Shown in pieces: positions 12,802-62,298 of a DNA stretch of 64,000 nt. The position numbers and the translations under genes are program-made. Location: contig DAOUMJ010000209.1 in NCBI GenBank assembly GCA_034411715.1, positions 11,604-75,603 on the forward strand, given 5' to 3'. The DNA is from Anaerolineales bacterium. GTDB lineage: Bacteria > Chloroflexota > Anaerolineae > Anaerolineales > Villigracilaceae. A model generated the notes under the pieces. The model did not search any database. It was not told the origin of the DNA and saw nothing but the letters and a program-made list of their open reading frames with translations. Within the stretch, counting starts at the first letter, position 1. Each line of letters opens with the position of its first letter.

Positions 12802-12850
12802 ACAGGTACACAGGTGACGTGTGTACGTGTGTACCTGTGTACTTGTGTAC
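12782..12850. repeat. GTACACAG-family palindrome spanning the acsV stop codon
   Basis: GTAAACAGGTAGACACGTAAACAGGTACACAGGTGAC / GTGTGTACGTGTGTACCTGTGTACTTGTGTAC. The TAA at 12799-12801 lies inside the left arm. Confidence 0.85.
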
Positions 12851-13436: not shown

Positions 13437-13513
13437 GTAAACACGTAGACAGGTACACAGGTAAACACGTATACACGTGACCTGTCTACCTGTGTACTTG
13501 TGTACTTGTATAC
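13437..13513. repeat. GTACACAG-family palindrome, GNAT-acsE spacer
   Basis: GTAAACACGTAGACAGGTACACAGGTAAACACGTATACACGTGAC / CTGTCTACCTGTGTACTTGTGTACTTGTATAC. Confidence 0.85.
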
Positions 13514-13532
13514 CAACCAACTGGAGGCACAA

Positions 13533-14700: not shown

Positions 14701-17700
14701 ATGTCTAACGCCGCACCCTTTCCCGCTCGTCGAAAGCCCGCCGTAACGCTGGTGGTCGGTGGCGGCATCGGGGGAATGCGCGCCGCGCTCGATTTGGCGG
14801 ACGCGGGCTTGAAGGTCTGCCTGGTCGAGCAGACGCCCTACCTCGGCGGCCGCGTCGCGCAATTGGGATTCATGTTTCCCCAACACGACTGCGTCCTCTG
14901 CCGCGGCACACCCGACCACGGATACGGCTGTACGCGTCCCTCGATCTCGCCCGCCTACATCCAGCACAACCAGCATCCCAACATCGAAATCCTGACCAGC
15001 ACGCATATCACCGACGTGGAGGGGGAGGCGGGCGATTTCACCGTCTCCCTGCGCGAGGAGCCGCGTTATGTTGACGTGTCGCGCTGCACCAGTTGCGGCT
15101 TGTGCGCCGAGGCTTGTCCCGTCGAACTGCCAAATGACTATCAACTGGGCATGACCAGGCGGAAGGCGGCCTACAAACTGGCCGCCCGCGCCGCGCCCGA
15201 CGCGTATTGCATTGACCGCGGCCCCTATTGCGACGACTGCCGCAAATGCGTCGAAGCCTGCCCGAGCAAGGCGATCAACCTCGAGGAACAGCCGCGTCTT
15301 TCCTCGGTGGAGGTGGGCGCGATCATCCTCGCGCTCGGCCACCAGATGTACAACGCCGCCGAACTGGAGGAACTGGGCTACGGACGCTACCCAAACGTGG
15401 TGCAGGCTCTCCAGTACGAGCGTCTCGCCTCCCGGTCAGGCCCGACCGAGGGGTTGGTCGTCCGTCCCTCGGACGGCAAGCCGCCCCGATCCATCGCCTG
15501 GCTGCAGTGCATCGGTTCCCGCGACCAGGACAATCCGTTCTGCTCCTCCATTTGCTGCATGTACGCCACCAAGGAGGCGATCCTCGCCAAGCAGCGCCTG
15601 GGCGCAGACGTGCATTGCAGCGTCTTCATCATGGACGAGCGCGCCTTCAACAAGGAATACAGCGCCTATTTTGCCACGGCGCGCAACCGCCACAAGATCC
15701 AGTACAACCGCTGCCGCGTCTCTGCCGTGCGCGAAGATCCCGCCACGCGCCAGCTCATCCTGAACTTTGCCGACCCCAATGGAAAACTGCGCGAGGAAAC
15801 GTTCGACATGGTGGTTCTTGCCACCGGGCTCCAGCCGCCCGAATCGGCCGGGCAACTGGCGGAGATGCTCGACATCGGGCTGAACAAGTACGGCTTTTGC
15901 GAGACCGACAAATTCGCCCCGCTCCAGACCACGCGGCCGGGCGTCTTTGTCTGCGGCGCGTTCTCGTCCCCGAAGGAAATCGCCGAGACCATCATAGACG
16001 CCAGCGGCGCGGCGGCCGAGGTCATGCGCCTGCTCAACGACCGGCTGAACACGTACCCATACAGCCGCGAGTGGCCGTTCCTTTCCACGCAAAACGGATT
16101 CCCTCCCGAACGCGACGTGAGCGAAGAAGAACCGCGCGTGGGCGTCTTCGCCTGCAATTGCGGCGGGACGCTCAACGAGCATCTCGATTTCCCCAGGCTC
16201 ATTCAACAAGCCGGTCTCCTGCCCGGCGTGAAGACGGCAGAGATGGTGGATTTTGCCTGTTTCCCCGAAGGGCTGAGATATCTCCAGGAGCATATCCAAA
16301 ATGACCGGCTCAACCGGGTGGCGATCGCGGCGTGCAGCAACCGCACGCACGAATCGCTCTTCCAGCGGATGATGCGTCAGGCGGGACTCAACCCCTACTT
16401 GCTCGAACTGGTCAACCTGCGCGAGCAATGCGGCCGCGTCCACGAAGGACAACATGACCTTGCGAATCGCAAGGCGCTCGAAATGATCCGCCTCGCGGTG
16501 GGACGCGTCGGACTGGCGCAGCCCGTCTACAAGAAGAAGCATCGCTGCCGACCGAGCGCGCTCGTGATCGGCGGAGGGCTGGCCGGTATGACCGCCAGCC
16601 TGGCGATTGCCGACAGCGGTTACGACGTGGACCTGGTCGAACGCTCCGACCGATTGGGCGGAAACCTGCTCGACCTCTATTACGTCGCCGAGGGCTTCAA
16701 CCCCCAACGCCTGCTGCGCGATCTGGTGAATCGCGTGCGCGCCCACTCGCGCATCACGGTCCACACGCGTACCGAACTGGCCAGCCACAGCGGGCATTTG
16801 GGAAATTACGTCACCGGCCTGCGCGCCGGGCATAACGGGACAAGCGAAAACTTCGAGGTCGAACATGGCGTGACCATCATCGCCACCGGGGCCCAGGAAG
16901 CCCGCCAGCATCCCTATCCGAAGGCGCCCGGCGTGATCACCCAGCACGAGCTGGAAGAGAAGATCATCCACCAGCCGGAAGAGATCGCCGCCCTCAAGGA
17001 CGTGGTGATGATCCAATGCGTGCGGCCCGAAAGCGCGCCCGAATATTGCTCGCGGGTGTGCTGCACCAACGCCCTGAAAAACGCCATCCGCCTCAAACTG
17101 TTCAATCCCGCCTGCAATGTGACCGTCCTGTTCAAGAACATCGTGACCTATGGCTTCCGCGAGGAATACTACACCGAAGCGCGTGAACTGGGCGTGGTCT
17201 TCGTCCGCTACACCGACGCGGAGCCGCCGCAGGTCGCGTTCGATCACGATTACGACCGTCTCAAAGTGCGCGTGCGCGACCTGTCGCTCGATCGCTGGCT
17301 GAACCTCAAGGCGGATCTGATTCCCCTCAGCACGTCCATCGTCCCTTCGGCCGGCGCGGCGGAACTGGCGCGCCTCCTGCGCGTCCCGCTTTCCAGCGAG
17401 GGCTTCTTCGAGGAAGCGCAGATGAAACTGCGACCAATGGACTTCATGCGCGAGGGCATTTTCCTGGCGGGGATGGCGCATTACCCCAAATTCAGCGAGG
17501 AGGCCATCAGCCACGCCCTGGCAGCCGCGGCCCGCGCCGTGACCGTCCTCTCCCAGCGCGATTCGCTCTACCTCGGCGGCGTGGTCGCCCAGGTGGACCC
17601 GGAAAAATGCGTCGGCTGTCTCACCTGCACGCGCACCTGTCCGTTCGGCATTCCCCAGGTGATCCAGGAGGAAGGTCGGACGGGCGTCGGCGGTCTGGGC

Positions 17701-17865
17701 GGCGCGGCGTTCATTGACTCGGCCTTATGCCAGGGCTGCGGAACCTGCACCGGCGAGTGCCCGGCCAATGCCATCCAGTTGGTGCATTACACCGACGAGC
17801 AAATGATGCTGCACGACATCGGCGGACTGGGCGCATGGAGAGTGCCAGTAATCAGTGATCAGTGA
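14701..17865 (+). CDS. hdrA: HdrA-like FAD/FeS oxidoreductase (two HdrA-type modules, 1054 aa)
   Basis: 'VVGGGIGGMRAALDLADAG', 'MFPQHDCVLC', 'LQCIGSRD...CSSICCMYATKEA', a second 'VIGGGLAGMTASLAIADSG', and C-terminal 2x[4Fe-4S] 'CVGCLTCTRTCPFG...CQGCGTCTGECP'. Confidence 0.88.
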   Translation: MSNAAPFPARRKPAVTLVVGGGIGGMRAALDLADAGLKVCLVEQTPYLGGRVAQLGFMFPQHDCVLCRGTPDHGYGCTRPSISPAYIQHNQHPNIEILTSTHITDVEGEAGDFTVSLREEPRYVDVSRCTSCGLCAEACPVELPNDYQLGMTRRKAAYKLAARAAPDAYCIDRGPYCDDCRKCVEACPSKAINLEEQPRLSSVEVGAIILALGHQMYNAAELEELGYGRYPNVVQALQYERLASRSGPTEGLVVRPSDGKPPRSIAWLQCIGSRDQDNPFCSSICCMYATKEAILAKQRLGADVHCSVFIMDERAFNKEYSAYFATARNRHKIQYNRCRVSAVREDPATRQLILNFADPNGKLREETFDMVVLATGLQPPESAGQLAEMLDIGLNKYGFCETDKFAPLQTTRPGVFVCGAFSSPKEIAETIIDASGAAAEVMRLLNDRLNTYPYSREWPFLSTQNGFPPERDVSEEEPRVGVFACNCGGTLNEHLDFPRLIQQAGLLPGVKTAEMVDFACFPEGLRYLQEHIQNDRLNRVAIAACSNRTHESLFQRMMRQAGLNPYLLELVNLREQCGRVHEGQHDLANRKALEMIRLAVGRVGLAQPVYKKKHRCRPSALVIGGGLAGMTASLAIADSGYDVDLVERSDRLGGNLLDLYYVAEGFNPQRLLRDLVNRVRAHSRITVHTRTELASHSGHLGNYVTGLRAGHNGTSENFEVEHGVTIIATGAQEARQHPYPKAPGVITQHELEEKIIHQPEEIAALKDVVMIQCVRPESAPEYCSRVCCTNALKNAIRLKLFNPACNVTVLFKNIVTYGFREEYYTEARELGVVFVRYTDAEPPQVAFDHDYDRLKVRVRDLSLDRWLNLKADLIPLSTSIVPSAGAAELARLLRVPLSSEGFFEEAQMKLRPMDFMREGIFLAGMAHYPKFSEEAISHALAAAARAVTVLSQRDSLYLGGVVAQVDPEKCVGCLTCTRTCPFGIPQVIQEEGRTGVGGLGGAAFIDSALCQGCGTCTGECPANAIQLVHYTDEQMMLHDIGGLGAWRVPVISDQ

Positions 17866-17879
17866 TCAGCGGAAAAAAT

Positions 17880-18386
17880 ATGACCCAACCAGAAAAAATT
17901 TTCGAACCCGAGATCACCGCGTTTTATTGTATCTACTGCGGTTACATGGCCGCGGACACCGCCGGGGCGTTGCAGGTGCAGTACCCCGCCAATGTCAAAT
18001 TTGTGCGGATGCCCTGCTCCGGCAAGACCGACGTCCGCTACCTGCTGGAGGCCTTCGAGCGCGGCGCGGACGGCGTGTACGTGGTCGCCTGCCCAATCGG
18101 CAACTGTCATCACGTGCGCGGCAACGAACGCGGACGCGCCCGGCTCAATCGGGCAAAGAAGATCCTGGATGAAATCGGCCTGGGCGGGGAACGGTTGGAT
18201 ATGTTCTTCATGTCCGGCAGCCAGGCTCGCGCCTACGCGGCCGCCGCGCGGACGATGACGGATCGCATCCGCAAATTGGGACCGAATCCGTTGAAAGATG
18301 AAAGCGGAAAGATGAAAGATGAAATGAAGCCGCCGGTGGAAGAAGAAGAAGCCGAGTTCCGCGGCAGACGGCAGAAGAAAGGATAA
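17880..18386 (+). CDS. mvhD: MvhD-type (methyl-viologen-reducing hydrogenase delta-like) protein, Cys form, with a repeat-derived C-terminal tail
   Basis: 'ITAFYCIYCGYMAAD...MPCSGKTD...GADGVYVVACPIGNCHH'. The tail 'LKDESGKMKDEMKPPVEEEE' is encoded by GATGAAG-type repeats. Confidence 0.85.
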   Translation: MTQPEKIFEPEITAFYCIYCGYMAADTAGALQVQYPANVKFVRMPCSGKTDVRYLLEAFERGADGVYVVACPIGNCHHVRGNERGRARLNRAKKILDEIGLGGERLDMFFMSGSQARAYAAAARTMTDRIRKLGPNPLKDESGKMKDEMKPPVEEEEAEFRGRRQKKG

Positions 18387-18523
18387 GCAAGAAAGGATGA
18401 AGGCGGAAGGATGAAGGATGAAATGAAAGTCCCCGCAAAAGAAGAAGATGAGAGGATGAAATCGAACGATTCATCCTTCATCCCTTCGACTTCGCTCAGG
18501 GCAAGCCTTCATAATTCATCCTT
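18292..18523. repeat. GATGAAG/GATGAAA heptamer arrays and hairpins spanning the mvhD 3' end, the spacer and the hdrL 5' end
   Basis: GAAAGATGAAAGCGGAAAGATGAAAGATGAAATGAAG; AGGATGAAGGCGGAAGGATGAAGGATGAAATGAAAG; hairpin GGATGAAATCG-AA-CGATTCATCC; then TTCGACTTCGCTCAGGGCAAG. Confidence 0.85.
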
Positions 18524-21500
18524 GCCTGTCGGCGCGGTGATGGTTGTCGGCGGAGGCATCGCGGGCATGCAGGCCTCGCTCGACCTGGCCGAGCAGGGAT
18601 TCAAAGTCTATTTGGTGGAGAAAAATTCCGCCATCGGCGGACACATGGCGCAATTGGATAAGACCTTCCCGACCAACGACTGCGCCATGTGCACCATCTC
18701 GCCTCGCCTGGTAGAAACGGGCCGACATCCGAACATCGAAATCCTCACGAACTCCGAAGTTCTCGACATGACCGGCCAGGCGGGCAATTTCACTGCGACC
18801 ATCGAGCGGCGGCCGCGCTACATTGATACGACCAAATGTATTGCCTGCGGCGATTGCGTCAAGGTCTGCCCGGTGCTTGTGCCGGACACTTTCAACGAAG
18901 GGCTTGCCTCCCGCCGCGCGGCCTACAAACTTTATCCGCAAGCCGTTCCCAATGCCTTCGCAATCGAGAAGAACGGCATCGCCCCATGCCGGGACGCCTG
19001 TCCTGCCCATCAGCGCGCACAGGGATACATCGCGCTGATCCGCGAGGGCCGTTGGGCGGACGCGCTGCGCGTCATCAAAATGGACAATCCCTTCCCCGGC
19101 ATCTGCGGGCGCATCTGCAACCACCGCTGCGAAACGGCCTGCAATCGCGGCGAAGTGGACGAACCGATCAATATCCGCGCCCTCAAACGATTCGTGACCG
19201 ACAAGGTGTATTCCGAGCCGCGCCAACCCGTCGGGCCGGTCGAGATCAAATATCCGGATCAACGCGTCGCCATCATCGGCGCGGGACCGTGCGGATTGAC
19301 CGCCGCGCAAGACATTATCCGACAGGGTTATCCGGTCACGATTTTCGAAGCCATGCCGGTCGCGGGCGGGATGTTACGCCTGGGCGTGCCGGAGTTCCGC
19401 CTGCCGGCCGAGATCATCGAGCGCGAGGTGGCGGACATTGTTGACCTGGGCATCGAGTTGAGACTCAATACGCCCGTGACCAATCTCGACGATATTTTCA
19501 ACGAGGGATTTACTTCGGTGTTGATTTCCGTCGGCGCGCACGAGGGCGTGCGCCTGCCGATCCCCGGCGCGAATTTGGACGGCGTCATAATCAATACTCA
19601 GTTCTTGAAGGATGTGCGTTTGGGAAAATATGAAACAAAAGATGAAAGCGGAAAGCCTGCCCTGAGCGAAGTCGAAGGGATGAAAGAGGAAAGAGGCGAC
19701 GGTTCCGATAATTCATCTTTCATCTCTCATCTTTCATCTTTGGGTAAGAACGTTCTCGTCCTCGGCGGCGGAAACGTGGCGATTGACGTGGCGCGGACAG
19801 CCGTGCGTTTGGGTTGCAAGGTCTCGATGGCTTGCCTGGAAAGCCGCGAACAAATGCCCGCGCACGAATGGGAGATTCAAGCCGCGCTCGACGAAGGCAT
19901 CGCAATTTACAACGACCGTTCTTTCGAGCAAATCTTCAGCGACGAAAACGGGCGCGCTCGCGGCGTGGAATGTATGCAGGTCAGTTCGTTCAGTTTCGAC
20001 GAGATGGGACGGTTGAGCGTCGAGAAAATCCCTGAGTCGAATCACGTCCTCCCGTGCGACACGGTCATTTTCTCGGTCGGGCAGCGCGCAGGTCTGGCGT
20101 TCATCCCCGCCGACGCGGGCGTCGGTCTCACCGAACGCAAGACCATCGCCATCAATCCCAACACCTTTGCCGCCACACGTCCCGGCGTCTTCGCGGCGGG
20201 CGATAGCGTCAGCGGGACGGCCTTTGTCATCGAGGCGGTTGCCAGCGGACACAAAGCGGCGGAATCCATTCTTCGTTATTTGCAAGGCGAGGCGCTGGAA
20301 CGTCCGCCCAAGCCTGAACTGCCGGTGGTCAAACTCACGCGGCAGGAGATTGACGACCGCATCGCGCGCGGCGAGATCAAAAAACAACCGCGCGTCCCAC
20401 TCCCCGAACTGCCCGTTGAACAACGCATCAACAACTTCATCGAAGTCGAAGGCGGCTATGACGACGAATCGGCGCAGCGTGAGGCGGCGCGCTGCCTGGC
20501 CTGCGGCATCTGCTCGGAATGTATGTCCTGCACCTTCGCGTGCGGTGTCAACGCGATTGACCACGATATGGTGGCGCGGCAGGAAGCGCTCAACATCGGC
20601 GCGGTGATCCTCGCGCCGGGCTATCAGGCGTATCACGCGGAACTGTCGGAGGAATTCGGCTACGGACGCTACCCGAACGTGGTCACGTCCCTGCAATTCG
20701 AACGCCTCCTCTCCGCCTCCGGCCCGACGATGGGACACGTCCACCGGCCCTCGGATCATCGCCCGCCGAAGCGGATCGCCTTCCTCCAGTGCATCGGCTC
20801 GCGCGACCAGACTCACGATTACTGCTCGGCGGTGTGCTGTATGTATGCGACGAAGGAAGCGGTCATCGCGAAAGAGCACCAGCCTGGGCTGGACGTTCAC
20901 GTTTTTATGATGGACATGCGCGCCTTCTCGAAAGGCTATTGGGGATATTTCGAGCGCGCCCGCGAGAGATATGGAATCCAATACCATCGTTCGCGCGTCA
21001 GCATGATCCGCGAAGACCCGAATACGCATGATTTGATTCTCAGTTACATGAGTGATCAGTTATCAGTAATCAGTGATCAGTTTGATATGGTCGTACTTTC
21101 CGTCGGGATGGAAATCTCCGAGTCGGTCAGAAATCTTGGGCGGCGATTGGGCGTCGAACTGGACGATTACGGATTCTGCCAGACGGTCCAGTTCAACCCG
21201 CTCGAAACTTCGCGGCCGGGAATCTACGCCGTCGGGCCGTTCCGCGAGCCGAAAGACATTCCCGAATCGGTCGTCGAGGGGAGCGGAGCGGCCGGGGCGG
21301 CCGCGGCCCGCCTCAGTCACGCGCGATTCGCCCTGACCGTCAGCCGCGAATATCCCGAGGAGCGGGACGTCAGCCAGGAGTCGCCGCGCGTCGGCGTCTT
21401 CGTCTGCTCGTGCGGCACGAACATCGGCGGCTTTGTGGACGTGCCAACGGTCTCAGAGTACGCGTCGAAGTTGCCAAACGTGGTTCACGCCGAGTCGAAT

Positions 21501-23162
21501 CTTTATACTTGTTCGCAGGACAGCATCAAGCACATCACCGAGCAGGTGATCGAGCATGGATTGAACCGCGTGGTGGTAGCGAGTTGCACGCCGCTGACGC
21601 ATCAGCCGCTGTTTCAGGATAGCATCCGCATGGCGGGGTTGAACCCGTACCTGTACGAGATGGCGAATATTCGCAATCAGTGTTCGTGGGTGCATTCGAC
21701 GGACAAGGAAGCCGCGACGGCCAAAGCCAAAGACCTGGTGCGCGCGGCGGTGGCGCGCGCCGCGTTGCTCGAAGCGCAGCACACGATTGACGTGCCGGTG
21801 AAAAACGCCGCGCTGATCGTTGGCGGAGGCGTCGCGGGGATGACGGCTGCCCTTTCCTTGGCGGAACAAGGATTCCCGGTGCATCTCGTGGAACGGGAAG
21901 CGGAACTCGGCGGTAACTTGCGATACGTGACTGCCCTCACCCCCGGCCCCTCTCCAGATTACGGGAGAGGGGGGCAAAGAAGCCCGCAAGAAATTTTGCA
22001 AAGCCTGGCGGAAAAAATTCAAGCAAATCCAAATATCGCCCTGCACATGAACAGCGAGGTTGCGTCCTCCGCTGGCTTCATGGGCAATTTCACCAGCACG
22101 CTCAAAGGCCGCGACGGAAGCCGCTGTGAGATCGCGCACGGCGCGACCATCCTCGCGACCGGCGCGCAGGAGTATCGTGGTCCTGAATATGGCTATGGGA
22201 GCGATCCGCGCATTGTGACGCAGCAGGAATTCGAGGCGGTGTTGGCAGGTAAACAGGTAAACATGTACACAGGTACACAGGGCGGCTCATCCCTGTCTGC
22301 CTGTTTACCTGTGTACGTGTCTACCGCCTCACCAGACTCCGTCGTTATGATCCAATGCGTCGGGCCGGCAGAAAAATTCTGTGCGCGCATTTGCTGTGCG
22401 GTGGCGCTGAAGAACGCGATTCGACTCAAGGAAGTCAATCCAAAAGCGGAAGTTGTGATTCTGTATCGCGACATCCGCACTTATGGTTTCAAGGAACGGT
22501 TGTATACAGAGGCGCGCGAAAAGGGCGTGGTTTTCATTCGCTATGAGCCTGAACGCAAACCGGAAGTCGCAATTACCAATTACCAATTACCAATTACCGT
22601 TCAAGTTTGGGAGCCTGTTTTACGAAAGGAACTGACCCTCCATCCCGACCTGCTCGTGCTTTCGATGCCGGTTGTACCCAGAGAGGATGCTCACGAAACG
22701 GCGGCCGCGTTTAAAGTCCCGCGCGACGCGGACGGGTTCTTCCTCGAAGCGCACGTCAAACTGCGCCCGGTGGATTTCGCCTCGGACGGCGCTTTCATGG
22801 CTGGGATGGCGCATTATCCGAAATTGCTTGAAGAAACCATGATCCAGGCGCAGGCCGCGGCGGCGCGGGCGGCGCGCGTTCTCAGCCGCGAAACGCTAAC
22901 CGCGGGCGGGCGCGTCGCAGTGGTGGATCAAACTCAATGCACCGGCTGTCTGACCTGCGTCCGCATCTGTCCGTTTGGCGTGCCGAAGATTCGCATTGAC
23001 ATGACCGGCGTCGGCGGAATTGTTGGCGCGGCTTATGTCGAAGCCGCCGTCTGTCAAGGCTGTGGCATTTGCGCGGCGGAATGTCCCGCGCGCGCGATCC
23101 AGTTAATGCACTACACCGACGCGCAGATGACGGCGAAGGTTGGCGCGTTGATACAAGGATGA
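18411..23162 (+). CDS. Giant HdrA / GltD(NfnB)-like / HdrA fusion flavoprotein (HdrL-like, 1583 aa)
   Basis: HdrA N-terminus 'VVGGGIAGMQASLDLAEQG..TNDCAMC'. GltD-like block 'CPAHQRAQGYIALIREGRWADALRVIKMDNPFPGICGRICNHRCETAC...RVAIIGAGPCGLTAAQD'. HdrA core 'LQCIGSRDQTHDYCSAVCCMYATKEA'. Second FAD site 'IVGGGVAGMTAALSLAEQG'. C-terminal ferredoxin 'CTGCLTCVRICPFG..CQGCGICAAECP'. Repeat elements lie in frame inside it. The exact start is uncertain because it falls inside a repeat. Confidence 0.85.
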   Translation: MKDEMKVPAKEEDERMKSNDSSFIPSTSLRASLHNSSLPVGAVMVVGGGIAGMQASLDLAEQGFKVYLVEKNSAIGGHMAQLDKTFPTNDCAMCTISPRLVETGRHPNIEILTNSEVLDMTGQAGNFTATIERRPRYIDTTKCIACGDCVKVCPVLVPDTFNEGLASRRAAYKLYPQAVPNAFAIEKNGIAPCRDACPAHQRAQGYIALIREGRWADALRVIKMDNPFPGICGRICNHRCETACNRGEVDEPINIRALKRFVTDKVYSEPRQPVGPVEIKYPDQRVAIIGAGPCGLTAAQDIIRQGYPVTIFEAMPVAGGMLRLGVPEFRLPAEIIEREVADIVDLGIELRLNTPVTNLDDIFNEGFTSVLISVGAHEGVRLPIPGANLDGVIINTQFLKDVRLGKYETKDESGKPALSEVEGMKEERGDGSDNSSFISHLSSLGKNVLVLGGGNVAIDVARTAVRLGCKVSMACLESREQMPAHEWEIQAALDEGIAIYNDRSFEQIFSDENGRARGVECMQVSSFSFDEMGRLSVEKIPESNHVLPCDTVIFSVGQRAGLAFIPADAGVGLTERKTIAINPNTFAATRPGVFAAGDSVSGTAFVIEAVASGHKAAESILRYLQGEALERPPKPELPVVKLTRQEIDDRIARGEIKKQPRVPLPELPVEQRINNFIEVEGGYDDESAQREAARCLACGICSECMSCTFACGVNAIDHDMVARQEALNIGAVILAPGYQAYHAELSEEFGYGRYPNVVTSLQFERLLSASGPTMGHVHRPSDHRPPKRIAFLQCIGSRDQTHDYCSAVCCMYATKEAVIAKEHQPGLDVHVFMMDMRAFSKGYWGYFERARERYGIQYHRSRVSMIREDPNTHDLILSYMSDQLSVISDQFDMVVLSVGMEISESVRNLGRRLGVELDDYGFCQTVQFNPLETSRPGIYAVGPFREPKDIPESVVEGSGAAGAAAARLSHARFALTVSREYPEERDVSQESPRVGVFVCSCGTNIGGFVDVPTVSEYASKLPNVVHAESNLYTCSQDSIKHITEQVIEHGLNRVVVASCTPLTHQPLFQDSIRMAGLNPYLYEMANIRNQCSWVHSTDKEAATAKAKDLVRAAVARAALLEAQHTIDVPVKNAALIVGGGVAGMTAALSLAEQGFPVHLVEREAELGGNLRYVTALTPGPSPDYGRGGQRSPQEILQSLAEKIQANPNIALHMNSEVASSAGFMGNFTSTLKGRDGSRCEIAHGATILATGAQEYRGPEYGYGSDPRIVTQQEFEAVLAGKQVNMYTGTQGGSSLSACLPVYVSTASPDSVVMIQCVGPAEKFCARICCAVALKNAIRLKEVNPKAEVVILYRDIRTYGFKERLYTEAREKGVVFIRYEPERKPEVAITNYQLPITVQVWEPVLRKELTLHPDLLVLSMPVVPREDAHETAAAFKVPRDADGFFLEAHVKLRPVDFASDGAFMAGMAHYPKLLEETMIQAQAAAARAARVLSRETLTAGGRVAVVDQTQCTGCLTCVRICPFGVPKIRIDMTGVGGIVGAAYVEAAVCQGCGICAAECPARAIQLMHYTDAQMTAKVGALIQG
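19628..19742. repeat. GATGAAG-family palindromic element in frame inside the GltD-like part of hdrL
   Basis: Left AAAGATGAAAGCGGAAAG. Core CCTGAGCGAAGTCGAAGGGATGAAAGAGG. Right TTCATCTTTCATCTCTCATCTTTCATCTTT. Translates to 'YETKDESGKPALSEVEGMKEERGDGSDNSSFISHLSSL'. Confidence 0.85.
21947..21972. repeat. CCCCTCTCC...GGAGAGGGG hairpin in frame in hdrL
   Basis: CCCCTCTCC [AGATTACG] GGAGAGGGG. Translates within 'TPGPSPDYGRGGQ', which is extra relative to the HdrA paralogue. Confidence 0.8.
22246..22325. repeat. GTACACAG-family palindrome in frame inside the hdrL-like CDS
   Basis: CAGGTAAACAGGTAAACATGTACACAGGTACACAGGG [CGGCTCAT] CCCTGTCTGCCTGTTTACCTGTGTACGTGTCTACC. Translates to 'AGKQVNMYTGTQGGSSLSACLPVYVST', a segment with no counterpart in the HdrA paralogue (14701..17865). 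Confidence 0.85.
22571..22598. repeat. (AATTACC)x4 heptamer tract inside hdrL
   Basis: AATTACCAATTACCAATTACCAATTACC. Related tracts at 36587-36610 (in res) and 59451-59478 (upstream of fdhA). Confidence 0.9.
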
Positions 23163-23187
23163 AGGATGAAAGATGAAGGATGAAATT
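23157..23187. repeat. GATGAAG heptamer array containing the hdrL stop codon
   Basis: GGATGAAGGATGAAAGATGAAGGATGAAATT. The TGA at 23160-23162 is part of the first unit. Confidence 0.85.
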
Positions 23188-23232
23188 GCGTGGAACGTGT
23201 TGCGTCCCTTCGACTTCACTCAGGACAAGATT

Positions 23233-23274
23233 GTGTGTTCCGTGTTTACCTGTGCACTTGTGTACCTGTCTACC
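23233..23274. repeat. GTACACAG-family half element (reverse-orientation arm only), upstream of the Sec-mvhD
   Basis: GTGTGTTCCGTGTTTACCTGTGCACTTGTGTACCTGTCTACC. Confidence 0.75.
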
Positions 23275-23285
23275 TGACGCGACCA

Positions 23286-23711
23286 ATGAATGAACCGTTG
23301 AACATCATCGCTTATTGCTGTGAGCATTGCGCCTACGCCGCGGCCGATCTCGCGGGCGGACTGCGGATGCAGTATCCGCCTTCGGTGAAGGTGGTGCTGT
23401 TGCCCTGCACCGGTAAGCTGGATGTGCTGCTGGCGCTGAAAGCCTTCGAGGACGGCGCGGACGGCGTGATGACGGCTGGCTGACTGCCGGGCGACTGCCA
23501 TTACCTGGAAGGTAATGCTAATGCAAAGCGCAGAGTGGAATACCTGCAATCATTATTGAAAGAAATCGGCCTGGAGCCGGAGCGGGCGCGCATGTTCAAT
23601 CTCTCGGCGGCCATGGCTGGAAAATTTGTGGAAGCGACGAAAGAAATGACGGAGAAGATTGAAAAGTTGGGTCCGAATCCGTTGAAAACAAGGATGAATG
23701 ATGAAGGATGA
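23286..23711 (+). CDS. mvhD: MvhD-type protein with in-frame UGA (23481-23483) read as selenocysteine. The ORF track truncates it at 23483.
   Basis: Collinear with the paralogue at 17880: 'GADGVYVVAC-PIGNCHH' versus 'GADGVMTAG[UGA]LPGDCHY'. The frame stays open after the UGA for 75 codons with homology to the end ('KLGPNPLK'). A hairpin lies 16 nt downstream. Confidence 0.8.
23499..23517 (+). promoter_or_regulatory. Candidate bacterial SECIS hairpin for mvhD UGA
   Basis: Perfect 7-bp stem CATTACC / GGTAATG with loop TGGAA, starting 16 nt after the UGA. Confidence 0.5.
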
Positions 23712-23720
23712 AGGATGAAA
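23691..23720. repeat. GATGAAG heptamer array (left flank of the four-helix-bundle gene) containing the Sec-mvhD stop
   Basis: AGGATGAATGATGAAGGATGAAGGATGAAA. Confidence 0.85.
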
Positions 23721-23760: not shown

Positions 23761-24132
23761 ATGAACAATGAACAGCCACAAGACTTGCGGACAAGGACGA
23801 GCGATTTTGCATTGAGAATCATTCGGCTGTATGTAAGCCTGCCAAAGGCAACCGAAGCCCAGGTCATCGGAAAGCAGGTTCTACGTTCAGGCACATCGGT
23901 TGGCGCGCATTATCGCGAGGGTCATCGAGCGAAGTCCGACGCCGATATCATCAATAAATTCGAGACCGCGTTGCAGGAATTGGACGAGACCGATTACTGG
24001 TTGGAATTGCTCGTGAAAGCCGATATTGTCCCTGCCCAAAAACTGGAATCGCTTCGCAAAGAAACGAGCGAACTTCTCGCAATATTCACAACCATCGTAA
24101 CCAAAATCAAGAAGAGAACTGGAAAGAAGTGA
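23761..24132 (+). CDS. Four-helix-bundle protein (23S rRNA intervening-sequence protein family)
   Basis: 'FALRIIRLYVSLPKATEAQVIGKQVLRSGTSVGAHYREGHRAKSDADIINKF..ALQELDETDYWLELL' matches the family signature. AT-richer than its neighbours and flanked by inverted GATGAAG arrays. Confidence 0.8.
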   Translation: MNNEQPQDLRTRTSDFALRIIRLYVSLPKATEAQVIGKQVLRSGTSVGAHYREGHRAKSDADIINKFETALQELDETDYWLELLVKADIVPAQKLESLRKETSELLAIFTTIVTKIKKRTGKK

Positions 24133-24139
24133 TGAAACC

Positions 24140-24173
24140 CATTCATCCTTCATCCTTTATCCTTCATCCTTTC
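24140..24173. repeat. Inverted GATGAAG array (right flank of the four-helix-bundle gene)
   Basis: CATTCATCCTTCATCCTTTATCCTTCATCCTTTC, the reverse complement of the units at 23691-23720. Confidence 0.85.
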
Positions 24174-24184
24174 GGAGGTGAAGA

Positions 24185-24868
24185 ATGATCGTTGCAGAAC
24201 AAAAAACTTTGGAAGAGATCAAGAACCTGGTCGGCGGCGCGAAGAACGTGCTGGTCGTCGGATGCGGCACGTGCGTCACCGTCTGCTTCGCAGGCGGGGC
24301 GCGCGAGGCGGCCATCGTCTCGGCCGAGTTGCGGATGGCCTCCAAACTCGACGGCGACCCGAAAGCCGTCACCGATGTGACCGTCCAGCGGCAATGCGAG
24401 TGGGAGTATCTCGATGAGATCGCCGAGCAGATCAAGGATGTGGATGTGGTGCTTTCGCTTGGCTGCGGCGTGGGCGTGCAAGCCATCGCGGAACACTTCC
24501 CGAACGCGTGGGTTGTGCCTGGGCTGAATACCAAGTTCATGGGACTGCCGACCGAGCAGGGAGTCTGGGCGGAACGTTGCGCGGCCTGCGGCGACTGCAT
24601 CCTCGGGCTGACGGGCGGAATCTGCCCGATCGCGCGCTGTTCCAAGTCGCTTCTTAATGGACCTTGCGGCGGGTCGCTGGATGGACACTGCGAGATCAAC
24701 GAGGAGGTCTCCTGCGCCTGGCAGTTGATCTATGACCGCTTGAAGAGTATGGACAAACTGGAAGTCCTCATGGACATCCAGCCGCCCAAGAATTGGCGAA
24801 CGTCCCGCGACGGCGGCCCGCGCAAGATCGTGCGCGAAGACCTGCGTCTGATCGCAGAGGAGAAGTAG
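24185..24868 (+). CDS. metV: Methylene-THF reductase small subunit (MetV, Cys-rich MTHFR_C-type)
   Basis: 'VVGCGTCVTVCFAGG', 'CAACGDCILGLTGGICPIARCSKSLLNGPCGGS..GHCE'. Immediately upstream of metF. Confidence 0.85.
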   Translation: MIVAEQKTLEEIKNLVGGAKNVLVVGCGTCVTVCFAGGAREAAIVSAELRMASKLDGDPKAVTDVTVQRQCEWEYLDEIAEQIKDVDVVLSLGCGVGVQAIAEHFPNAWVVPGLNTKFMGLPTEQGVWAERCAACGDCILGLTGGICPIARCSKSLLNGPCGGSLDGHCEINEEVSCAWQLIYDRLKSMDKLEVLMDIQPPKNWRTSRDGGPRKIVREDLRLIAEEK

Positions 24869-24870
24869 AC

Positions 24871-25896
24871 ATGGCTGGCACAAACGGTTATCTCTCCGGC
24901 TCGAATCTCGAGCGTGTTTTGAAAAACGGTCACTTTGCCGTCACTGCCGAACTCGGCCCACCCCAGAACGCGGATGGAAATGTGATTCGAAAAAAAGTCG
25001 GTCTGCTGAAGGGATATTGTGACGCCGCCAACCTGACCGACAACCAGACCGCCATCGTGCGCATGTCCAGCATCGGCGCGGGGGCGATCCTGGTGCAGGA
25101 GGGAATCGAACCCGTTATCCAGATGGTCTGCCGCGACCGCAACCGCCTGGCCATGCAAAGCGACCTGCTCGGCGCGTACGCGCTCGGCATCCGCAACCTG
25201 CTGTGTCTCACCGGCGACCATCAGACCTTCGGAAACCATCCCACCGCTAAGAATGTGTTCGACATTGACTCCACCCAGATGGTGCAGATGGTGACGGACA
25301 TGCGCGATAAGCGCGTCTTCCAGTGCGGCGAGGAATTGAAAGGACAGGAACCGCGCTTTTTCGTCGGCGCGGCCGAATCACCCTTCGCGCATCCGGTGGA
25401 CTTCCGTCCGTACCGCCTCGGCAAGAAGGTCAAGGCGGGCGCGAGTTTCATCCAGACGCAACTGGTCTTCGACATCGCGGCCTTCAAGAAGTTCATGGAA
25501 AAAGCGCGCGAGTTGGGCATCCACAAACAAACGTACATCCTAGCCGGAGTCGGTCCGCTCAAAAGCCCGACCATGGCGAAGTACATGAAAGATAACGTAC
25601 CAGGCATTTTGATTCCCGACGAATTGATCGCGCGCATGACCGCGGCCGGCAAACCCTGGGCTGGCAAGAACAAGGATGAGTTGACCGCCGAAGACAAGAA
25701 AGCCCGCTCGAAAGCCTGGCAGGAAGAAGGCATCAAGATCTGCATCGAACTCATCCGGCAAATGCGCGAGATCGAAGGCGTGTCGGGCGTGCATCTCATG
25801 TGCATCGAATGGGAAGAGGCGGTCAAGCCGATCGTCGAGGGCGCGGGGCTGTATCCGCGGCCAATCGTGGCTGAGCCGCAGGAAGTCAGACCCTAA
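24871..25896 (+). CDS. metF: Methylenetetrahydrofolate reductase
   Basis: Start at ATG 24871, 2 nt after the metV stop. 'FAVTAELGPP', 'NLTDNQTAIVRMSS', 'CRDRNRLAMQSDLLGAYALGIRNLLCLTGDH'. Confidence 0.88.
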   Translation: MAGTNGYLSGSNLERVLKNGHFAVTAELGPPQNADGNVIRKKVGLLKGYCDAANLTDNQTAIVRMSSIGAGAILVQEGIEPVIQMVCRDRNRLAMQSDLLGAYALGIRNLLCLTGDHQTFGNHPTAKNVFDIDSTQMVQMVTDMRDKRVFQCGEELKGQEPRFFVGAAESPFAHPVDFRPYRLGKKVKAGASFIQTQLVFDIAAFKKFMEKARELGIHKQTYILAGVGPLKSPTMAKYMKDNVPGILIPDELIARMTAAGKPWAGKNKDELTAEDKKARSKAWQEEGIKICIELIRQMREIEGVSGVHLMCIEWEEAVKPIVEGAGLYPRPIVAEPQEVRP

Positions 25897-26004
25897 AGGT
25901 TTTTCCGGCGAACCATGTGGAAAGTTCGCAGGAAAACCGTGTCTGAAGAGCTCGTTTGAATGCAAAGGAAACCTTTAGGGTCTCTCTTGCAAAGGAGATA
26001 GACG

Positions 26005-27432
26005 ATGGAAGCACAAACCAATCTTAGAGAAACGATCACCATCAATCCCAAACTGGCCCAGCGCATCAAAGACGAATTGGGACAGAACGTCTATCTCTGC
26101 TATCAATGCGTCAAATGCACCAGCGGCTGTCCGCTGGCGGAATATTTCGACTGGCAGCCCAACCAGGTCATGCGCGCCGTGCAACTGGGACAGGAGGACA
26201 TCGCCCTCCATGCAAAGACTCCGTGGCTGTGCGCGTCTTGCCAGGTTTGCGCGACGCGTTGCCCACAGGGGCTGGACGTGACGGGGATCATGGCCTTCCT
26301 GACGCGCGAAGCGATTCAAAACGGAATCGAACCCGAGGTCCCGGAGGTGGACGCGCTGAATCAAGCCTTCCAGCGCGAAGTGCGTCTGTGGGGACGATCC
26401 TATGAATTGGGATTGATGGCGGAGATGAAACTCCGCACCGGACGATTGACAGAGGACCTGGATCTCGGCGTGCGAATCATCGGCAAGAACAAACTGCCGT
26501 TCCTGCCCAAACGCGTGAGACCCCCGAAGCGCCCCAAGCCCGTGCCTGCCGCGGCAGACACGGTCGCTTACTACCCCGGATGTTCGCTCCACTCCACCGC
26601 CAAAGAATACGACGCCTCCGCCAAAGCCGTGTGCGAGGCGCTGGGGCTGAAATTGCACGAGCCGCCCGGCTGGGTCTGCTGCGGAAGCACGCCCATCCAT
26701 CGCGCCTACCCCGAAACCGCCCTGCGCCTGCCCATGGAAAACCTGCGCCTGGTCGAGCAAAGCGGACTGAACGAGGTGGTGATGCCCTGCGCGGCCTGCT
26801 TCAACCACACGCGCATGGCCTTGCACGAGATTCACCACGATCCGCAGCGAAAAGCGGAAGTGGAACAGGCGATGGGCTACGCTTATCGCGACCGCGTACG
26901 CGTCAGCGCGTTGTGCGAAGCGCTCTTCCGCCGCGTGGGCGCGCAGAAAGTCGCGGACAAAGTGAAACGTCCGCTGGCTGGCTTGCGCGTGGTCTGCTAT
27001 TACGGCTGTCTGTTGACGCGTCCGCCGCAGATCACCGGCGCGGCGCACCCGGAAAACCCGACCGAAATGGACGCGCTGATGTCCGCCCTGGGCGCGGAGG
27101 TGAAGGATTGGTCGTATAAAACCACCTGTTGCGGCGCGACCCATTCGCTTTCCCGCCCGGATATCGTCCGCAAACTCAGCAGTAATCTGATCGAACACGC
27201 CCGCGAGGCTGGCGCGGATGCGATGGCGGTCGCCTGTCCGCTGTGCCACACCAACCTGGACGCGCGCCAGTTCCAGATGAAACTGGAACAGCCGATGCCG
27301 ATCTTCTACTTCACGCAGTTGATGGCAATAGCCCTGGGCTTGCCCGAGAAAGCCGCGGCGCTCGAAAAGAACCTGGTTGATCCGCGCCCGTTGTTGCAAA
27401 GCAAAGCGATGCTGCGCGGCAATCACTCCTGA
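26005..27432 (+). CDS. Fused HdrC-like (2x4Fe-4S) / HdrB-like (two CCG domains) subunit
   Basis: 'CYQCVKCTSGCP...CASCQVCATRCP', then 'YYPGCSLHSTAKEY...WVCCGS' and 'CYYGCLLTRP...TTCCGA'. AAGGAG lies upstream. Confidence 0.85.
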   Translation: MEAQTNLRETITINPKLAQRIKDELGQNVYLCYQCVKCTSGCPLAEYFDWQPNQVMRAVQLGQEDIALHAKTPWLCASCQVCATRCPQGLDVTGIMAFLTREAIQNGIEPEVPEVDALNQAFQREVRLWGRSYELGLMAEMKLRTGRLTEDLDLGVRIIGKNKLPFLPKRVRPPKRPKPVPAAADTVAYYPGCSLHSTAKEYDASAKAVCEALGLKLHEPPGWVCCGSTPIHRAYPETALRLPMENLRLVEQSGLNEVVMPCAACFNHTRMALHEIHHDPQRKAEVEQAMGYAYRDRVRVSALCEALFRRVGAQKVADKVKRPLAGLRVVCYYGCLLTRPPQITGAAHPENPTEMDALMSALGAEVKDWSYKTTCCGATHSLSRPDIVRKLSSNLIEHAREAGADAMAVACPLCHTNLDARQFQMKLEQPMPIFYFTQLMAIALGLPEKAAALEKNLVDPRPLLQSKAMLRGNHS

Positions 27433-29216: not shown

Positions 29217-29223
29217 TGGGTAT

Positions 29224-29264
29224 GTGTCAGGTTTCAGGTTTCAAGTGTCAGGTTTCAAGGTGTC
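29224..29264. repeat. Reverse-complement copy of the CCTGAAA/CCTGACA heptamer array (between the two ABC genes)
   Basis: GTGTCAGGTTTCAGGTTTCAAGTGTCAGGTTTCAAGGTGTC. Confidence 0.8.
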
Positions 29265-59440: not shown

Positions 59441-59490
59441 CGCCAGACACAATTACCAATCACTAATTACCAATTACCCCCGAGGTGATC

Positions 59491-62298
59491 ATGACAATCA
59501 GCCTAACCATCAACGGACAAAAAATCGAAGCCCAGCCTAGTCAAACCATCCTCGATGTGGCGCGCTCGAACGGCGTTGACATCCCGACCCTCTGCTATCA
59601 CAAAGACCTGTCCCCCACTGGCAACTGCCGAATGTGCGTGGTCGAGGTCAAGGGCGGACGATTCCTGTCCGCCGCGTGTGTGACTTCGGTGTGGGAGGGG
59701 ATGGAAATCCAGACGCACAGCGAAAAAGTGGTCAAAGATCGCAAACTGACGCTGGAACTCATGCTGGCAAATCACCCGCAGGATTGCATCACCTGTGACG
59801 TGAGCGGCGAGTGCGAGTTGCAGGATTTGGCCTACGAACACAAGGTTGTCGTTCCGAGTTGGGGGACGAAAGGGACGCGCTATCCTGTTGACAGCGACCC
59901 GAATCCCTTCATCCGCGTGGACATGAACCGCTGTATCCTGTGCCGTCGCTGCGTGCTGGCCTGCGGCGAGATTCAAGTGCGGGATGTTTGGGGTGTCGCC
60001 AAGCGCGGCTTCGAGGAGATCATCGTTGCGGGAGCGGGGACTTCCATGCTCGAAGCGCGCTGCGAGTCCTGCGGGCAGTGCGTGGCGTACTGTCCGACGG
60101 GCGCGCTATCGAACAAGATGAACTACGGGGTGGCGCGCGCGCATCAGGTCGGGAAAGTGACGACGACCTGTTCGTATTGCGGCGTCGGCTGTCAGTTTGA
60201 TTTATTGGTGAAAAATAACAAGGTGATTGGCGTTCAGTCCAATCCCAATGCGCCAGTAAATGGAATGGCACTCTGCGTCAAAGGACGTTACGGTTACGAC
60301 TATATCCACCACCCCGACAGACTCTTGAAACCCAAAGTCCGCCGCTATTTACTCGACGGCGATTCAAAGCCAATCGTAAATCGTAAATCTGAAATCCAAA
60401 ATCCAAAATGGGACTGGGTTGAGACAGATTGGGAAACCGCGCTCGGCATCACTGCTCGAAAATTAGTGGAGACACGCGAAAAACACGGCGCGGACAGCGT
60501 CGGCATATTGACTTCGGCGAAGTGTTTGAACGAAGAAAACTACCTGATGAACAAACTGGCGCGGCAGGTCTTGGGGACGAACAACATAGACCACTGCGCC
60601 CGTCTCTGACACTCCAGCACGGTGGCCGGTCTGGCCGCCTCCTTCGGTTCGGGCGCGATGTCCAACAGCATGGACGACGTGGCTGCGCAAGCAAAAGCCT
60701 TCTTCATCATTGGCTCCAACACCACGGAACAGCATCCCGTCTTCGGGACGATGCTCCGCCGCGCGGTTCGCTTCCGCGGCGCGAAACTGGTGGTAGCCGA
60801 TCCGCGTCGCATTGACATCACCGACTTCGCCACGCTTCACCTCCGTCACAAACCCGGCACGGACATCGCCCTCGTCAACGGGCTGATGTACATCATCCTC
60901 GAAAAAGGCTGGGAGGACAAAGCCTTCATCGAGGAGCGCTGCGAGAACTTCGACGAGTTCAAAGCCACGGTGATGAACTACCAGCCCGAGAAAGCCAGCG
61001 AGATCACGGGCATTCCCGTGGAGCAACTTTATCAAGCCGCCGAAATCATCTCGCAAAACAAGCCCAGCGCGGTGATATGGGCGATGGGAATCACCCAACA
61101 CATTTCGGGCGTCCGCAACGTGATGGACCTCGCCAACCTGCAAATGCTGCTCGGAAACATGGGCAAAGCGGGCGGAGGCGTCAACCCGTTGCGCGGACAA
61201 AACAACGTTCAGGGCGCGTGCGATATGGGCGGATTGCCGAATGTCTATCCTGCCTACCAACCCGTCACCAGCGAGGAAGTCCGCGAGAAATTTGTCAAAG
61301 CCTGGGGCGCGACCAGTTCCACAAAAGTCGGCGCGGTTGTCACCGAAATGATCCCTGGCATTCTCGAAGGCAAGACCCACGCGCTTTACATCCTCGGCGA
61401 AGACCCCGTGATGTCCGATCCCGATACGAACCACATCCGCAAGTGTCTCGAAGCGATTGACTTCCTCGTCTTGCAGGAAATCTTCCCCTCTGAGACCTCG
61501 GCTTACGCGGACGTTCTCCTGCCTGGCGTTTCCTTCGCCGAAAAGACGGGGACGTTCACCAATACCGAGCGGCGGGTTCAGATGGTTCGTCAAGCGATTC
61601 CCCCTCTCGGCGACGCGCGTGACGATTGGTGGATCACGGCTGAAATTGCAAAACGCGTCATCCAATTCAGAATTCAGAATTCAGAATTCAGAATTGATCC
61701 GGAAGCGCCGTGGGCGAAGTGGGATTACAAAGACACATCCGCCATCATGGACGAGATCAACGCGCTGACCCCCTCCTACGCTGGCATCACGCACGCCCGT
61801 CTCGAAAAGGGCGAGCGATTGCAATGGCCTTGCCCAACGACAGACCATCCTGGCACGCCGATCCTGCACACGAAACAATTCACGCGTGGAAAGGGCAAGT
61901 TCATGCCGATTGACCACGTCCCGCCTGCGGAAGAGCCGACGGAGGAGTATCCGTTCGTTTTGTCCACGGGACGCGTTCTCTACCACTGGCACGGCGGAGG
62001 AATGACGCGCCGCGCGGCAGGCCTGATGCAAGTCTACGACGAGGCGCTGGTGGAGTTGAATCCCGACGACGCGGCGCGGCTGGGGGTCAATGGCAAGAAG
62101 CGGGTGCGTGTCACGTCGCGGCGCGGCAACATCGAAGTTCAGGCATGGATCACGGATCGAGTCCCGCCGGGAATGGTCTACGCCAACTTCCACTTCCCCG
62201 AAGCCTCCGCCAACGAGCTGACCATCGCCGCGCTCGATCCCGTTTCGAAGATTCCTTCGTACAAGGTCGCGGCGGTAAAAGTTGAGTTGGCAAAATAA
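59491..62298 (+). CDS. fdhA: Formate dehydrogenase catalytic subunit (NuoG-like FeS N-terminus plus molybdopterin domain) with selenocysteine at UGA 60607-60609. The ORF track splits it into 59485..60609 and 60622..62298.
   Basis: Both track ORFs are in one frame. The read-through gives '[30 protein letters not shown]' (compare E. coli FdhF 'CARV-U-HGPSVAGL'). 2Fe-2S 'CYHKDLSPTGNCRMC'. 4Fe-4S motifs. C-terminal 'PPGMVYANFHF'. Confidence 0.9.
60372..60408. repeat. AATCGTA/AATCCAA heptamer tract inside fdhA
   Basis: AATCGTA AATCGTA AATCTGA AATCCAA AATCCAA AA. Translates to 'IVNRKSEIQNPK'. Confidence 0.85.
60621..60639 (+). promoter_or_regulatory. Candidate SECIS hairpin for fdhA UGA
   Basis: GGTGGCC [GGTCT] GGCCGCC, a 7-bp stem (one G-U pair) starting 12 nt after the UGA, with GGU in the loop. 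Confidence 0.6.
61664..61696. repeat. (AATTCAG)x4.7 heptamer tract inside fdhA
   Basis: AATTCAGAATTCAGAATTCAGAATTCAGAATTG. Translates to 'IQFRIQNSEFRID'. Confidence 0.9.

Follow-up and report, generated by a model that had tools for sequence, protein, structure and literature searches.

A predicted selenocysteine codon in an mvhD gene of a Chloroflexota Wood-Ljungdahl gene cluster

Introduction

The Wood-Ljungdahl gene cluster described here contains two genes of the FlpD/MvhD family, and in one of them, mvhD2, the reading frame is interrupted by a TGA. This locus raises the question of whether the TGA ends the gene or is read as selenocysteine (Sec), and what the presence of two such genes in one cluster means. 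We analyzed a 64,000-nucleotide stretch of DNA from an Anaerolineales bacterium (the window, to which all coordinates refer) and compared it with 80 related loci, labeled L with a number, that were collected by a scan at one genome per species. These loci share 58-77% protein identity with the window and come nearly all from Anaerolineae or other Chloroflexota metagenome-assembled genomes (MAGs). On the comparative data presented below, mvhD2 is very likely a true selenoprotein gene with the UGA recoded as Sec, for which we predict incorporation.

Gene neighborhood of mvhD2

The window holds a Wood-Ljungdahl cluster of a Chloroflexota (Anaerolineae-type) bacterium. Its first part is formed by acsB, acsD, acsC, a RACo activase gene, a GNAT gene, acsE, hdrA1 and the Cys-type mvhD1; these are followed by hdrL, mvhD2 with its TGA, a small PF05635 gene, metV, metF and an hdrCB fusion, and further along the window by a NuoF-like gene and fdhA. 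The features around mvhD2 are as follows:

14701..17865, plus strand: hdrA1, a 1054-aa HdrA-type flavoprotein, precedes mvhD1
17880..18386, plus strand: mvhD1, the Cys paralog ('VAC-PIGNCHH'; Pfam FlpD, E 1.3e-40)
18411..23162, plus strand: hdrL, a 1583-aa HdrA/GltD-type fusion flavoprotein (Pfam Pyr_redox_2, Fer4_20, Fer4)
23286..23711, plus strand: mvhD2, predicted Sec-containing FlpD/MvhD gene (141 codons, Sec at codon 66, terminal stop an ordinary TGA)
23481..23483, plus strand: predicted UGA selenocysteine codon of mvhD2 (Cys in homologs; TGA in 72 of 80 related loci)
23499..23517, plus strand: candidate SECIS hairpin of mvhD2 (stem CAUUACC/GGUAAUG, loop UGGAA; conserved core 23499-23516)
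24185..24868, plus strand: metV (Pfam PF12225)
24871..25896, plus strand: metF, methylene-THF reductase (Pfam MTHFR; a 341-aa gene call in L086)
26005..27432, plus strand: hdrCB fusion (CCG domains plus Fer4, by domain matches)

Each of the two mvhD genes is preceded by its own HdrA-type gene, hdrA1 before mvhD1 and hdrL before mvhD2, as the original prediction had described. HdrL also matches the NCBIfam models for HdrA2 and for the glutamate synthase small subunit. Its true start may lie about 96 nt downstream of 18411, and the L081 homolog lacks the first 32 aa. Neither hdrA1 nor hdrL contains an in-frame TGA. The distance from the end of hdrL to mvhD2 is 123 nt. An hdrL-type gene is the upstream neighbor of mvhD2 in about 75 of the 80 related loci; none was detected in L062, L064, L079 and L080, all of which have upstream sequence. 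Directly downstream of mvhD2, metV is found in 63 of 80 loci. The mvhD, metV, metF, hdrA-type and hdrC/B genes of the window are thus co-located in a Wood-Ljungdahl cluster, which is the arrangement of an HdrABC-MvhD-MetVF type reductase.

In seven loci (L037, L043, L046, L050, L056, L065, L069) a second hdrL-like gene lies about 2 kb past the Sec-type mvhD and takes the place of metV. Given these loci, the HdrL/Sec-MvhD pair serves as a module in more than one context, including outside metVF.

The mvhD2 gene and its in-frame TGA

The frame of mvhD2 has a single internal stop, its translation reading MNEPLNIIAYCCEHC...GADGVMTAG-(stop)-LPGDCHYLEGN...KLGPNPLKTRMNDEG before the terminal stop, so that the predicted peptide across the UGA is GADGVMTAG-U-LPGDCHYLEGNANAK. 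An earlier ORF call placed this gene at 23190..23483. This call does stop at the TGA, and its start at GTG 23190 is disfavored; the likely start is ATG 23286, because a close homolog (P0004) begins with MNEPLQ. Downstream of the UGA there are 75 further codons.

The FlpD domain extends across the stop. When Cys was substituted at the TGA, the Pfam FlpD profile (PF02662) matched MvhD2 over its whole length (1-123 of 123; E = 1e-47, 161.6 bits against a cut-off of 22.3), and VhuD/MvhD chains from the PDB matched with E-values from 1e-41 to 1e-34. The paralog MvhD1 (...GADGVYVVACPIGNCHH...KLGPNPLK) aligns collinearly across the stop with a Cys opposite the TGA, which agrees with the original prediction, as does the open frame with homology past this codon: the Pfam domain spans it and the downstream codons are conserved among relatives.

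The position of the TGA is one where cysteine is otherwise the rule. Among the best 120 protein-database matches, all of them full-length, we aligned 23 sequences, and the TGA column is Cys in 23 of 23 (motif AG-C-LPGDCHY). The conserved cysteine set of the family, C12, C15, C41, C66 and C71 in window numbering, occupies invariant or nearly invariant columns of this alignment and is complete in MvhD2, with Sec replacing Cys at 66. In the protein databases, every one of the closest relatives (78-85% identity) is a Cys form, which is a sampling artifact, since Sec genes are stored there as truncated fragments.

Conservation of the TGA across related loci

Nucleotide-level comparison gave a different distribution of codons at this column: TGA in 72 of the 80 related loci (about 90%) and TGC or TGT in the other 8. 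Ten of the loci were read by hand at the Sec column, with nine TGA and one TGT. In every TGA locus the frame continues without a further stop or indel, and the two halves share one frame in all 73 sequences. The original prediction had made its case depend on conservation past the TGA, and such conservation was found. In a codon alignment of the 72 TGA genes, the residues that follow are conserved while their codons vary (four codons are used for G61, two each for D62 and C63), and therefore this region is translated and under selection at the protein level.

The TGA recurs in GCA_964470465.1 (L086, contig CAYYDC010000041.1), a separate NCBI MAG assembly with 99.97% identity to the window (2 mismatches in 6 kb). 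SRR5011273 is represented by a Logan assembly with 100% identity, whose 4.5-kb contig covers only positions 24806-29307 of the window and ends short of the TGA.

Cys-type orthologs differ in what remains of the hairpin downstream. In the distant ones, L021 and L077, the same peptide is written in other codons and the hairpin is missing (CAC TAC CTG AAG GGC AAT in the stem region of L021; CAT TAT CTT ACC GGC AAC in L077). The Cys forms L023, L027, L081 and L084 are nested among Sec forms and have an intact hairpin, and the Cys pair L082/L083 carries a first C-to-T change in the stem. Judged from this pattern of sequences, Sec looks ancestral in the clade, and TGA appears to have reverted sporadically to TGY, leaving a fossil SECIS behind.

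The candidate recoding hairpin

The 7-bp perfect hairpin that had been claimed at 23499-23517 is present. It is formed by CATTACC (23499-23505) and GGTAATG (23511-23517) around the loop TGGAA (23506-23510), and it begins 15 nt past the last base of the TGA. With its stem of 6-7 bp, its UGGAA loop and this spacing from the UGA, it carries the signature of a bacterial SECIS.

In an alignment of 64 TGA sequences, the 18-nt core CATTACCTGGAAGGTAAT (23499-23516, without the closing G at 23517) is invariant or nearly so, and the third codon positions flanking it have an entropy of 1-2 bits. The G in the apical loop (alignment position 27) is unchanged in all 64 genes and was found in 9 further TGA loci. 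We also computed synonymous-site entropy over 47 conserved, degenerate amino-acid columns of the whole gene in 72 TGA sequences. No synonymous change occurs at five stem codons (His CAT, Tyr TAC, Leu CTG, Gly GGT, Asn AAT), the Glu codon of the loop has 0.48 bits and the Leu codon immediately 3' of the UGA 0.43 bits; the remaining columns range from about 0.8 to 2.3 bits, and all 41 columns outside the hairpin vary. This freezing of synonymous sites in TGA genes, together with the loss of the hairpin in the distant Cys forms, bears out its assignment as the SECIS of mvhD2; like the selenoprotein itself, this SECIS is very well supported.

Folding of the window sequence by itself is uninformative: the segment 23481-23545 has a z-score of -0.54 against shuffled sequences, 58 of 200 of which fold at least as well, and hence the significance of the hairpin comes only from the comparative data. 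RNAalifold on the aligned TGA genes returned the consensus stem AUUACC/GGUAAU with 0 compensatory pairs. Covariation is missing because the stem never varies, and the stem is frozen because a compensating change at any of its pairs would alter a conserved amino acid, only G-U wobbles being possible. Support for a SECIS therefore rests on invariance and on loss in Cys forms. Rfam gave no match in the whole window at gathering thresholds, and at E <= 10 on 23380-23620 it gave two chance matches (hya and mir-132) and no curated bacterial SECIS. The mvhD2 locus thus makes a clean teaching case, with a SECIS frozen by coding and structure at once and fossil hairpins that outlast the reversion to Cys.

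Selenocysteine use by the organism

The original prediction held that the organism uses Sec and that the window also encodes a Sec-containing formate dehydrogenase. Both statements agree with the second selenoprotein gene in the window, which has a TGA at the canonical 'HCARL-U-HSS' site and a hairpin with a GGUCU loop:

59485..62298, plus strand: fdhA, second selenoprotein gene (Sec TGA at 60607-60609, within HCARL-(stop)-HSSTVAGL)
60621-60639, plus strand: SECIS of fdhA (GGUGGCC / GGUCU / GGCCGCC; 7-bp hairpin, 11 nt after the UGA)

FdhA has N-terminal 2Fe-2S/4Fe-4S domains, and its gene is located about 1.1 kb downstream of the gene for a NuoF-like NAD(P)H/FMN subunit (56642-58354). TGA is the ordinary stop of 9 of 25 well-supported genes in the window, mvhD2 and hdrL among them, and the genetic code is thus standard. 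A crude scan for in-frame TGAs with at least 60 open codons on both sides yielded 81 sites, of which only 23481 and 60607 fall in supported gene frames; nearly all the others lie in non-coding frames of GC-rich DNA. [quoted passage not shown] Sec elongation factors have been reported in Anaerolineales genomes (PMC4959059).

Alternative explanations of the TGA

A nonsense mutation or a sequencing error could be taken to account for the TGA, with a former TGC or TGT changed to TGA in a pseudogene and the downstream frame left as an undecayed remnant. A single-base change would suffice, the closest database proteins have Cys, and public annotation calls only a 65-aa fragment. We give this explanation hardly any credence, given that 72 of 80 species-level genomes share a TGA at this column and have intact, selected frames beyond it, its recurrence in the separate MAG assembly, and an invariant hairpin that is specific to the TGA forms. 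A split gene, in which the TGA is a real stop and polypeptides of 65 aa and about 58-75 aa assemble into MvhD, would have a candidate restart in the GTG-started ORF 23535..23711. The 17 codons between the TGA and this GTG, however, include the invariant Cys71-His72 and are conserved as protein with synonymous change; the halves keep the same frame in all 73 sequences with no indels between them, no conserved start codon or ribosome-binding site follows the TGA, and the Cys homologs are single chains. It is therefore very improbable that the protein is made in two pieces. Nonsense mutation, assembly error and split gene are ruled out by the comparative data on the 80 loci.

The chance that TGA is a sense codon genome-wide (code 4 or 25) is negligible. 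In-frame TGAs are all that speaks for it, and it is refuted by the TGA stops in 9 of 25 genes and by the fact that both in-frame TGAs align with Cys/Sec columns of known selenoprotein families. Recoding of the UGA as Sec is the reading that we follow below.

Two MvhD modules in one cluster

In the window as in 33 related loci, a single operon-like cluster contains a Cys and a Sec paralog separated by about 5 kb. The original prediction proposed selenium-dependent switching between two modules feeding MetVF. Cys-MvhD/HdrA1 and Sec-MvhD/HdrL would then be alternative isoenzymes, chosen by selenium supply in the manner of Vhu/Vhc in Methanococcus. Switching between Sec and Cys isoenzymes exists in methanogens (PMC11097638, PMC13518236) and has been speculated for Desulfobacterium autotrophicum (PMC2702500). 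Isoenzymes of this kind should be close, interchangeable isoforms with equivalent partners, whereas MvhD1 and MvhD2 are 47% identical over 137 residues and their partners are a 1054-aa HdrA and a 1583-aa HdrL, the GltD-type NAD(P)H module being found only in HdrL. A Cys copy should also accompany the Sec copy and become redundant once Sec is replaced. However, mvhD1 is directly upstream of hdrL in 33 of 80 loci and absent from that place in roughly 25 with sufficient upstream sequence, and L021 keeps both mvhD genes though both are of the Cys type. In addition, both mvhD genes are encoded on the same strand and the gaps are short, an arrangement that points to co-transcription and away from alternative expression. 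We consequently consider the switch improbable, and this part of the original prediction was not upheld.

Other data on the mvhD1 region are the following. At the Sec column, mvhD1 has TGC or TGT in every related locus that possesses this gene. In L060, L071, L073 and L078, acsE is located immediately before hdrL, and in L015 and L017 hdrA1 is found downstream. Overall, mvhD1 and mvhD2 look like two functionally distinct modules and not a backup of the Vhu/Vhc isoenzyme type.

Proposed role of the selenocysteine-containing MvhD

During translation of mvhD2, the UGA at 23481-23483 would be recoded to selenocysteine, SelB and Sec-tRNA presumably being recruited by the hairpin that starts 15 nt further along the mRNA (stem AUUACC/GGUAAU with a closing C-G pair, loop UGGAA). 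The product would be a 141-residue MvhD with Sec66 in the motif AG-U-LPGDCHY. We propose that MvhD2 is a [2Fe-2S] adaptor docking on the preceding HdrL flavoprotein and that it acts in an HdrL/HdrCB-MvhD-MetVF methylene-tetrahydrofolate reductase module of the Wood-Ljungdahl cluster; its placement in the MetVF module is suggested by metV directly following mvhD2 in most of the related loci. Within the cysteine set around the [2Fe-2S] cluster, Sec66 could be either a cluster ligand or a near-cluster redox-active residue, and a selenenylsulfide is possible. In the literature on the MvhD cysteines that ligate this cluster we found no residue-level statement.

A more far-reaching idea, which we regard as unlikely, is that in Anaerolineae-type Wood-Ljungdahl clusters the MvhD linking HdrL and MetVF is obligatorily selenium-dependent at a residue beside or on the [2Fe-2S] cluster. 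A Cys15-Sec66 selenenylsulfide, for example, could convert one-electron into two-electron transfer. If this were true, FdhA and MvhD would make the methyl branch dependent on selenium at two of its steps, and carbon fixation in a widespread sediment clade could be gated by the supply of this element. In a weaker variant of selenium dependence, the Cys-MvhD/HdrA1 module may take over when selenium is scarce.

Relation to known systems

PF02662 (FrhD/MvhD/VhuD) is a listed prokaryotic selenoprotein family (PMC13188914, PMC9312934), in line with the original prediction. MvhD2 belongs to this known Sec-MvhD family and is nothing new in kind. In a review, Sec-containing hydrogenase subunits, MvhD/VhuD among them, are described as limited to sulfate reducers and methanogens (PMC13188914).

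MvhD2 shares the FlpD fold family with VhuD of Methanococcus maripaludis/voltae (PDB 9SFI chain K; E 9e-41, collinear over residues 3-134). The M. maripaludis protein is likewise a [2Fe-2S] adaptor, bound to HdrA (PMC13518236, PMC13188914), and the non-standard residue of 9SFI chain K, a Sec, is exactly at the Sec66 column 'AG-U' (PMC13518236). VhuD differs from MvhD2 in carrying another Sec in its N-terminal CxxU site, a position occupied by Cys15 in the window protein, and in serving a hydrogenase or Fdh, not MetVF. VhuD is archaeal and depends on a SECIS in the 3'-UTR, whereas the hairpin of mvhD2 is inside the ORF. Against the NCBIfam VhuD equivalog model NF045873, MvhD2 scores 169.6 bits with a cut-off of 215, and it is thus a relative of VhuD rather than a VhuD equivalog.

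Among bacteria, D. autotrophicum HRM2 has four Sec-MvhDs (MvhD1/2/3/5), and each of its HdrL genes is followed by mvhD (PMC2702500). These Sec-MvhDs resemble MvhD2 in that they follow HdrA or HdrL, an HdrA/glutamate-synthase fusion with an NADH site, in an organism with the Wood-Ljungdahl pathway (PMC2702500); they differ in that HdrA and HdrL of D. autotrophicum are themselves selenoproteins and that the phylum is another. BamF of the Geobacter metallireducens class II benzoyl-CoA reductase is also a bacterial MvhD-type [2Fe-2S] adaptor with one Sec and adjoins an HdrA-type bifurcating subunit; for its Sec19, a near-cluster residue, a selenenylsulfide role has been proposed (bioRxiv 10.64898/2026.04.10.717634). 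This Sec19 is near the N-terminus, probably at the CxxU site and not at the AG-U column, and BamF is >100 aa longer than MvhD2, with extra domains.

With respect to gene order, the window resembles the Moorella thermoacetica MetFV-HdrABC-MvhD system and the marine Anaerolineae clusters, in which mvhD-metV-metF-hdrCB lie beside acsE and the ACS genes. A Chloroflexi hdrABC-mvhD-metVF cluster with fused hdrCB was described earlier, Sec in MvhD being unmentioned there (PMC5736913). In contrast to the Moorella and marine Anaerolineae clusters, the window has two HdrA-type and two mvhD genes, and the HdrA-type gene proximal to metVF is an HdrL-type fusion. The hairpin, in turn, is similar to the fdhF-type bacterial SECIS of Escherichia coli and Moorella in that its stem-loop lies within the ORF, a short distance past the UGA, and has a small apical loop containing a G, and departs from it in its 15-nt distance from the UGA, its UGGAA loop, and the absence of both GGUC and a bulged U.

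Consequences for annotation

The main value of this locus concerns annotation, as gene callers routinely cut genes of the mvhD2 type in half. In the public MAG GCA_964470465.1, mvhD2 is called as a 65-aa FlpD fragment and the 75 C-terminal codons are left uncalled; the same truncated call is expected in most of the 72 TGA-bearing MAGs. The NCBI VhuD 'exception' model, too, does not reach its cut-off with MvhD2. Metabolic reconstructions for these bacteria, which are common in sediments and the subsurface, could therefore overlook or misinterpret one subunit of the methylene-THF reductase module, and the same gap may hide a need for selenium in the clade's Wood-Ljungdahl pathway.

Inserted elements and repeats in the window

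The small gene between mvhD2 and metV (23761-24132) encodes a PF05635 '23S rRNA intervening-sequence protein' and is flanked by inverted arms of 30 nt (23690-23719 and 24142-24171), which show 93% complementarity and are made of AAGGATG heptamer arrays. From this architecture, the gene with its arms resembles an insertion of an IVS-like cassette between mvhD2 and metV. No PF05635 homolog was found at this place in the related loci, and most of them join mvhD and metV directly; in L034 a homolog is found between mvhD1 and hdrL.

Dozens of short tandem arrays, with units of 7-8 nt in about 4 copies and often as adjacent or inverted pairs, are scattered over the intergenic spacers of the whole window (for example, 12782-12850, 13437-13514, 18393-18483, 19625-19741, 22246-22325 and 23155-23276). 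Some arrays are inside the hdrL ORF, at the sites of in-frame insertions relative to the L081 homolog (aa 410-443 and aa 1286-1304). The sequence GGATGAAGGATGAA occurs 11 times in the window, with 0.05 occurrences expected.

Finally, AcsB (37-2502) contains an intein with a LAGLIDADG homing-endonuclease domain, its junctions being 'ENPMTA' / 'CLTEDAEV...' and '...GIHVKN' / 'CGCFEC'. We take the CGC that follows the intein to be the Cys-Gly-Cys motif of the ACS A-cluster, in which case the insertion would sit at the active site.
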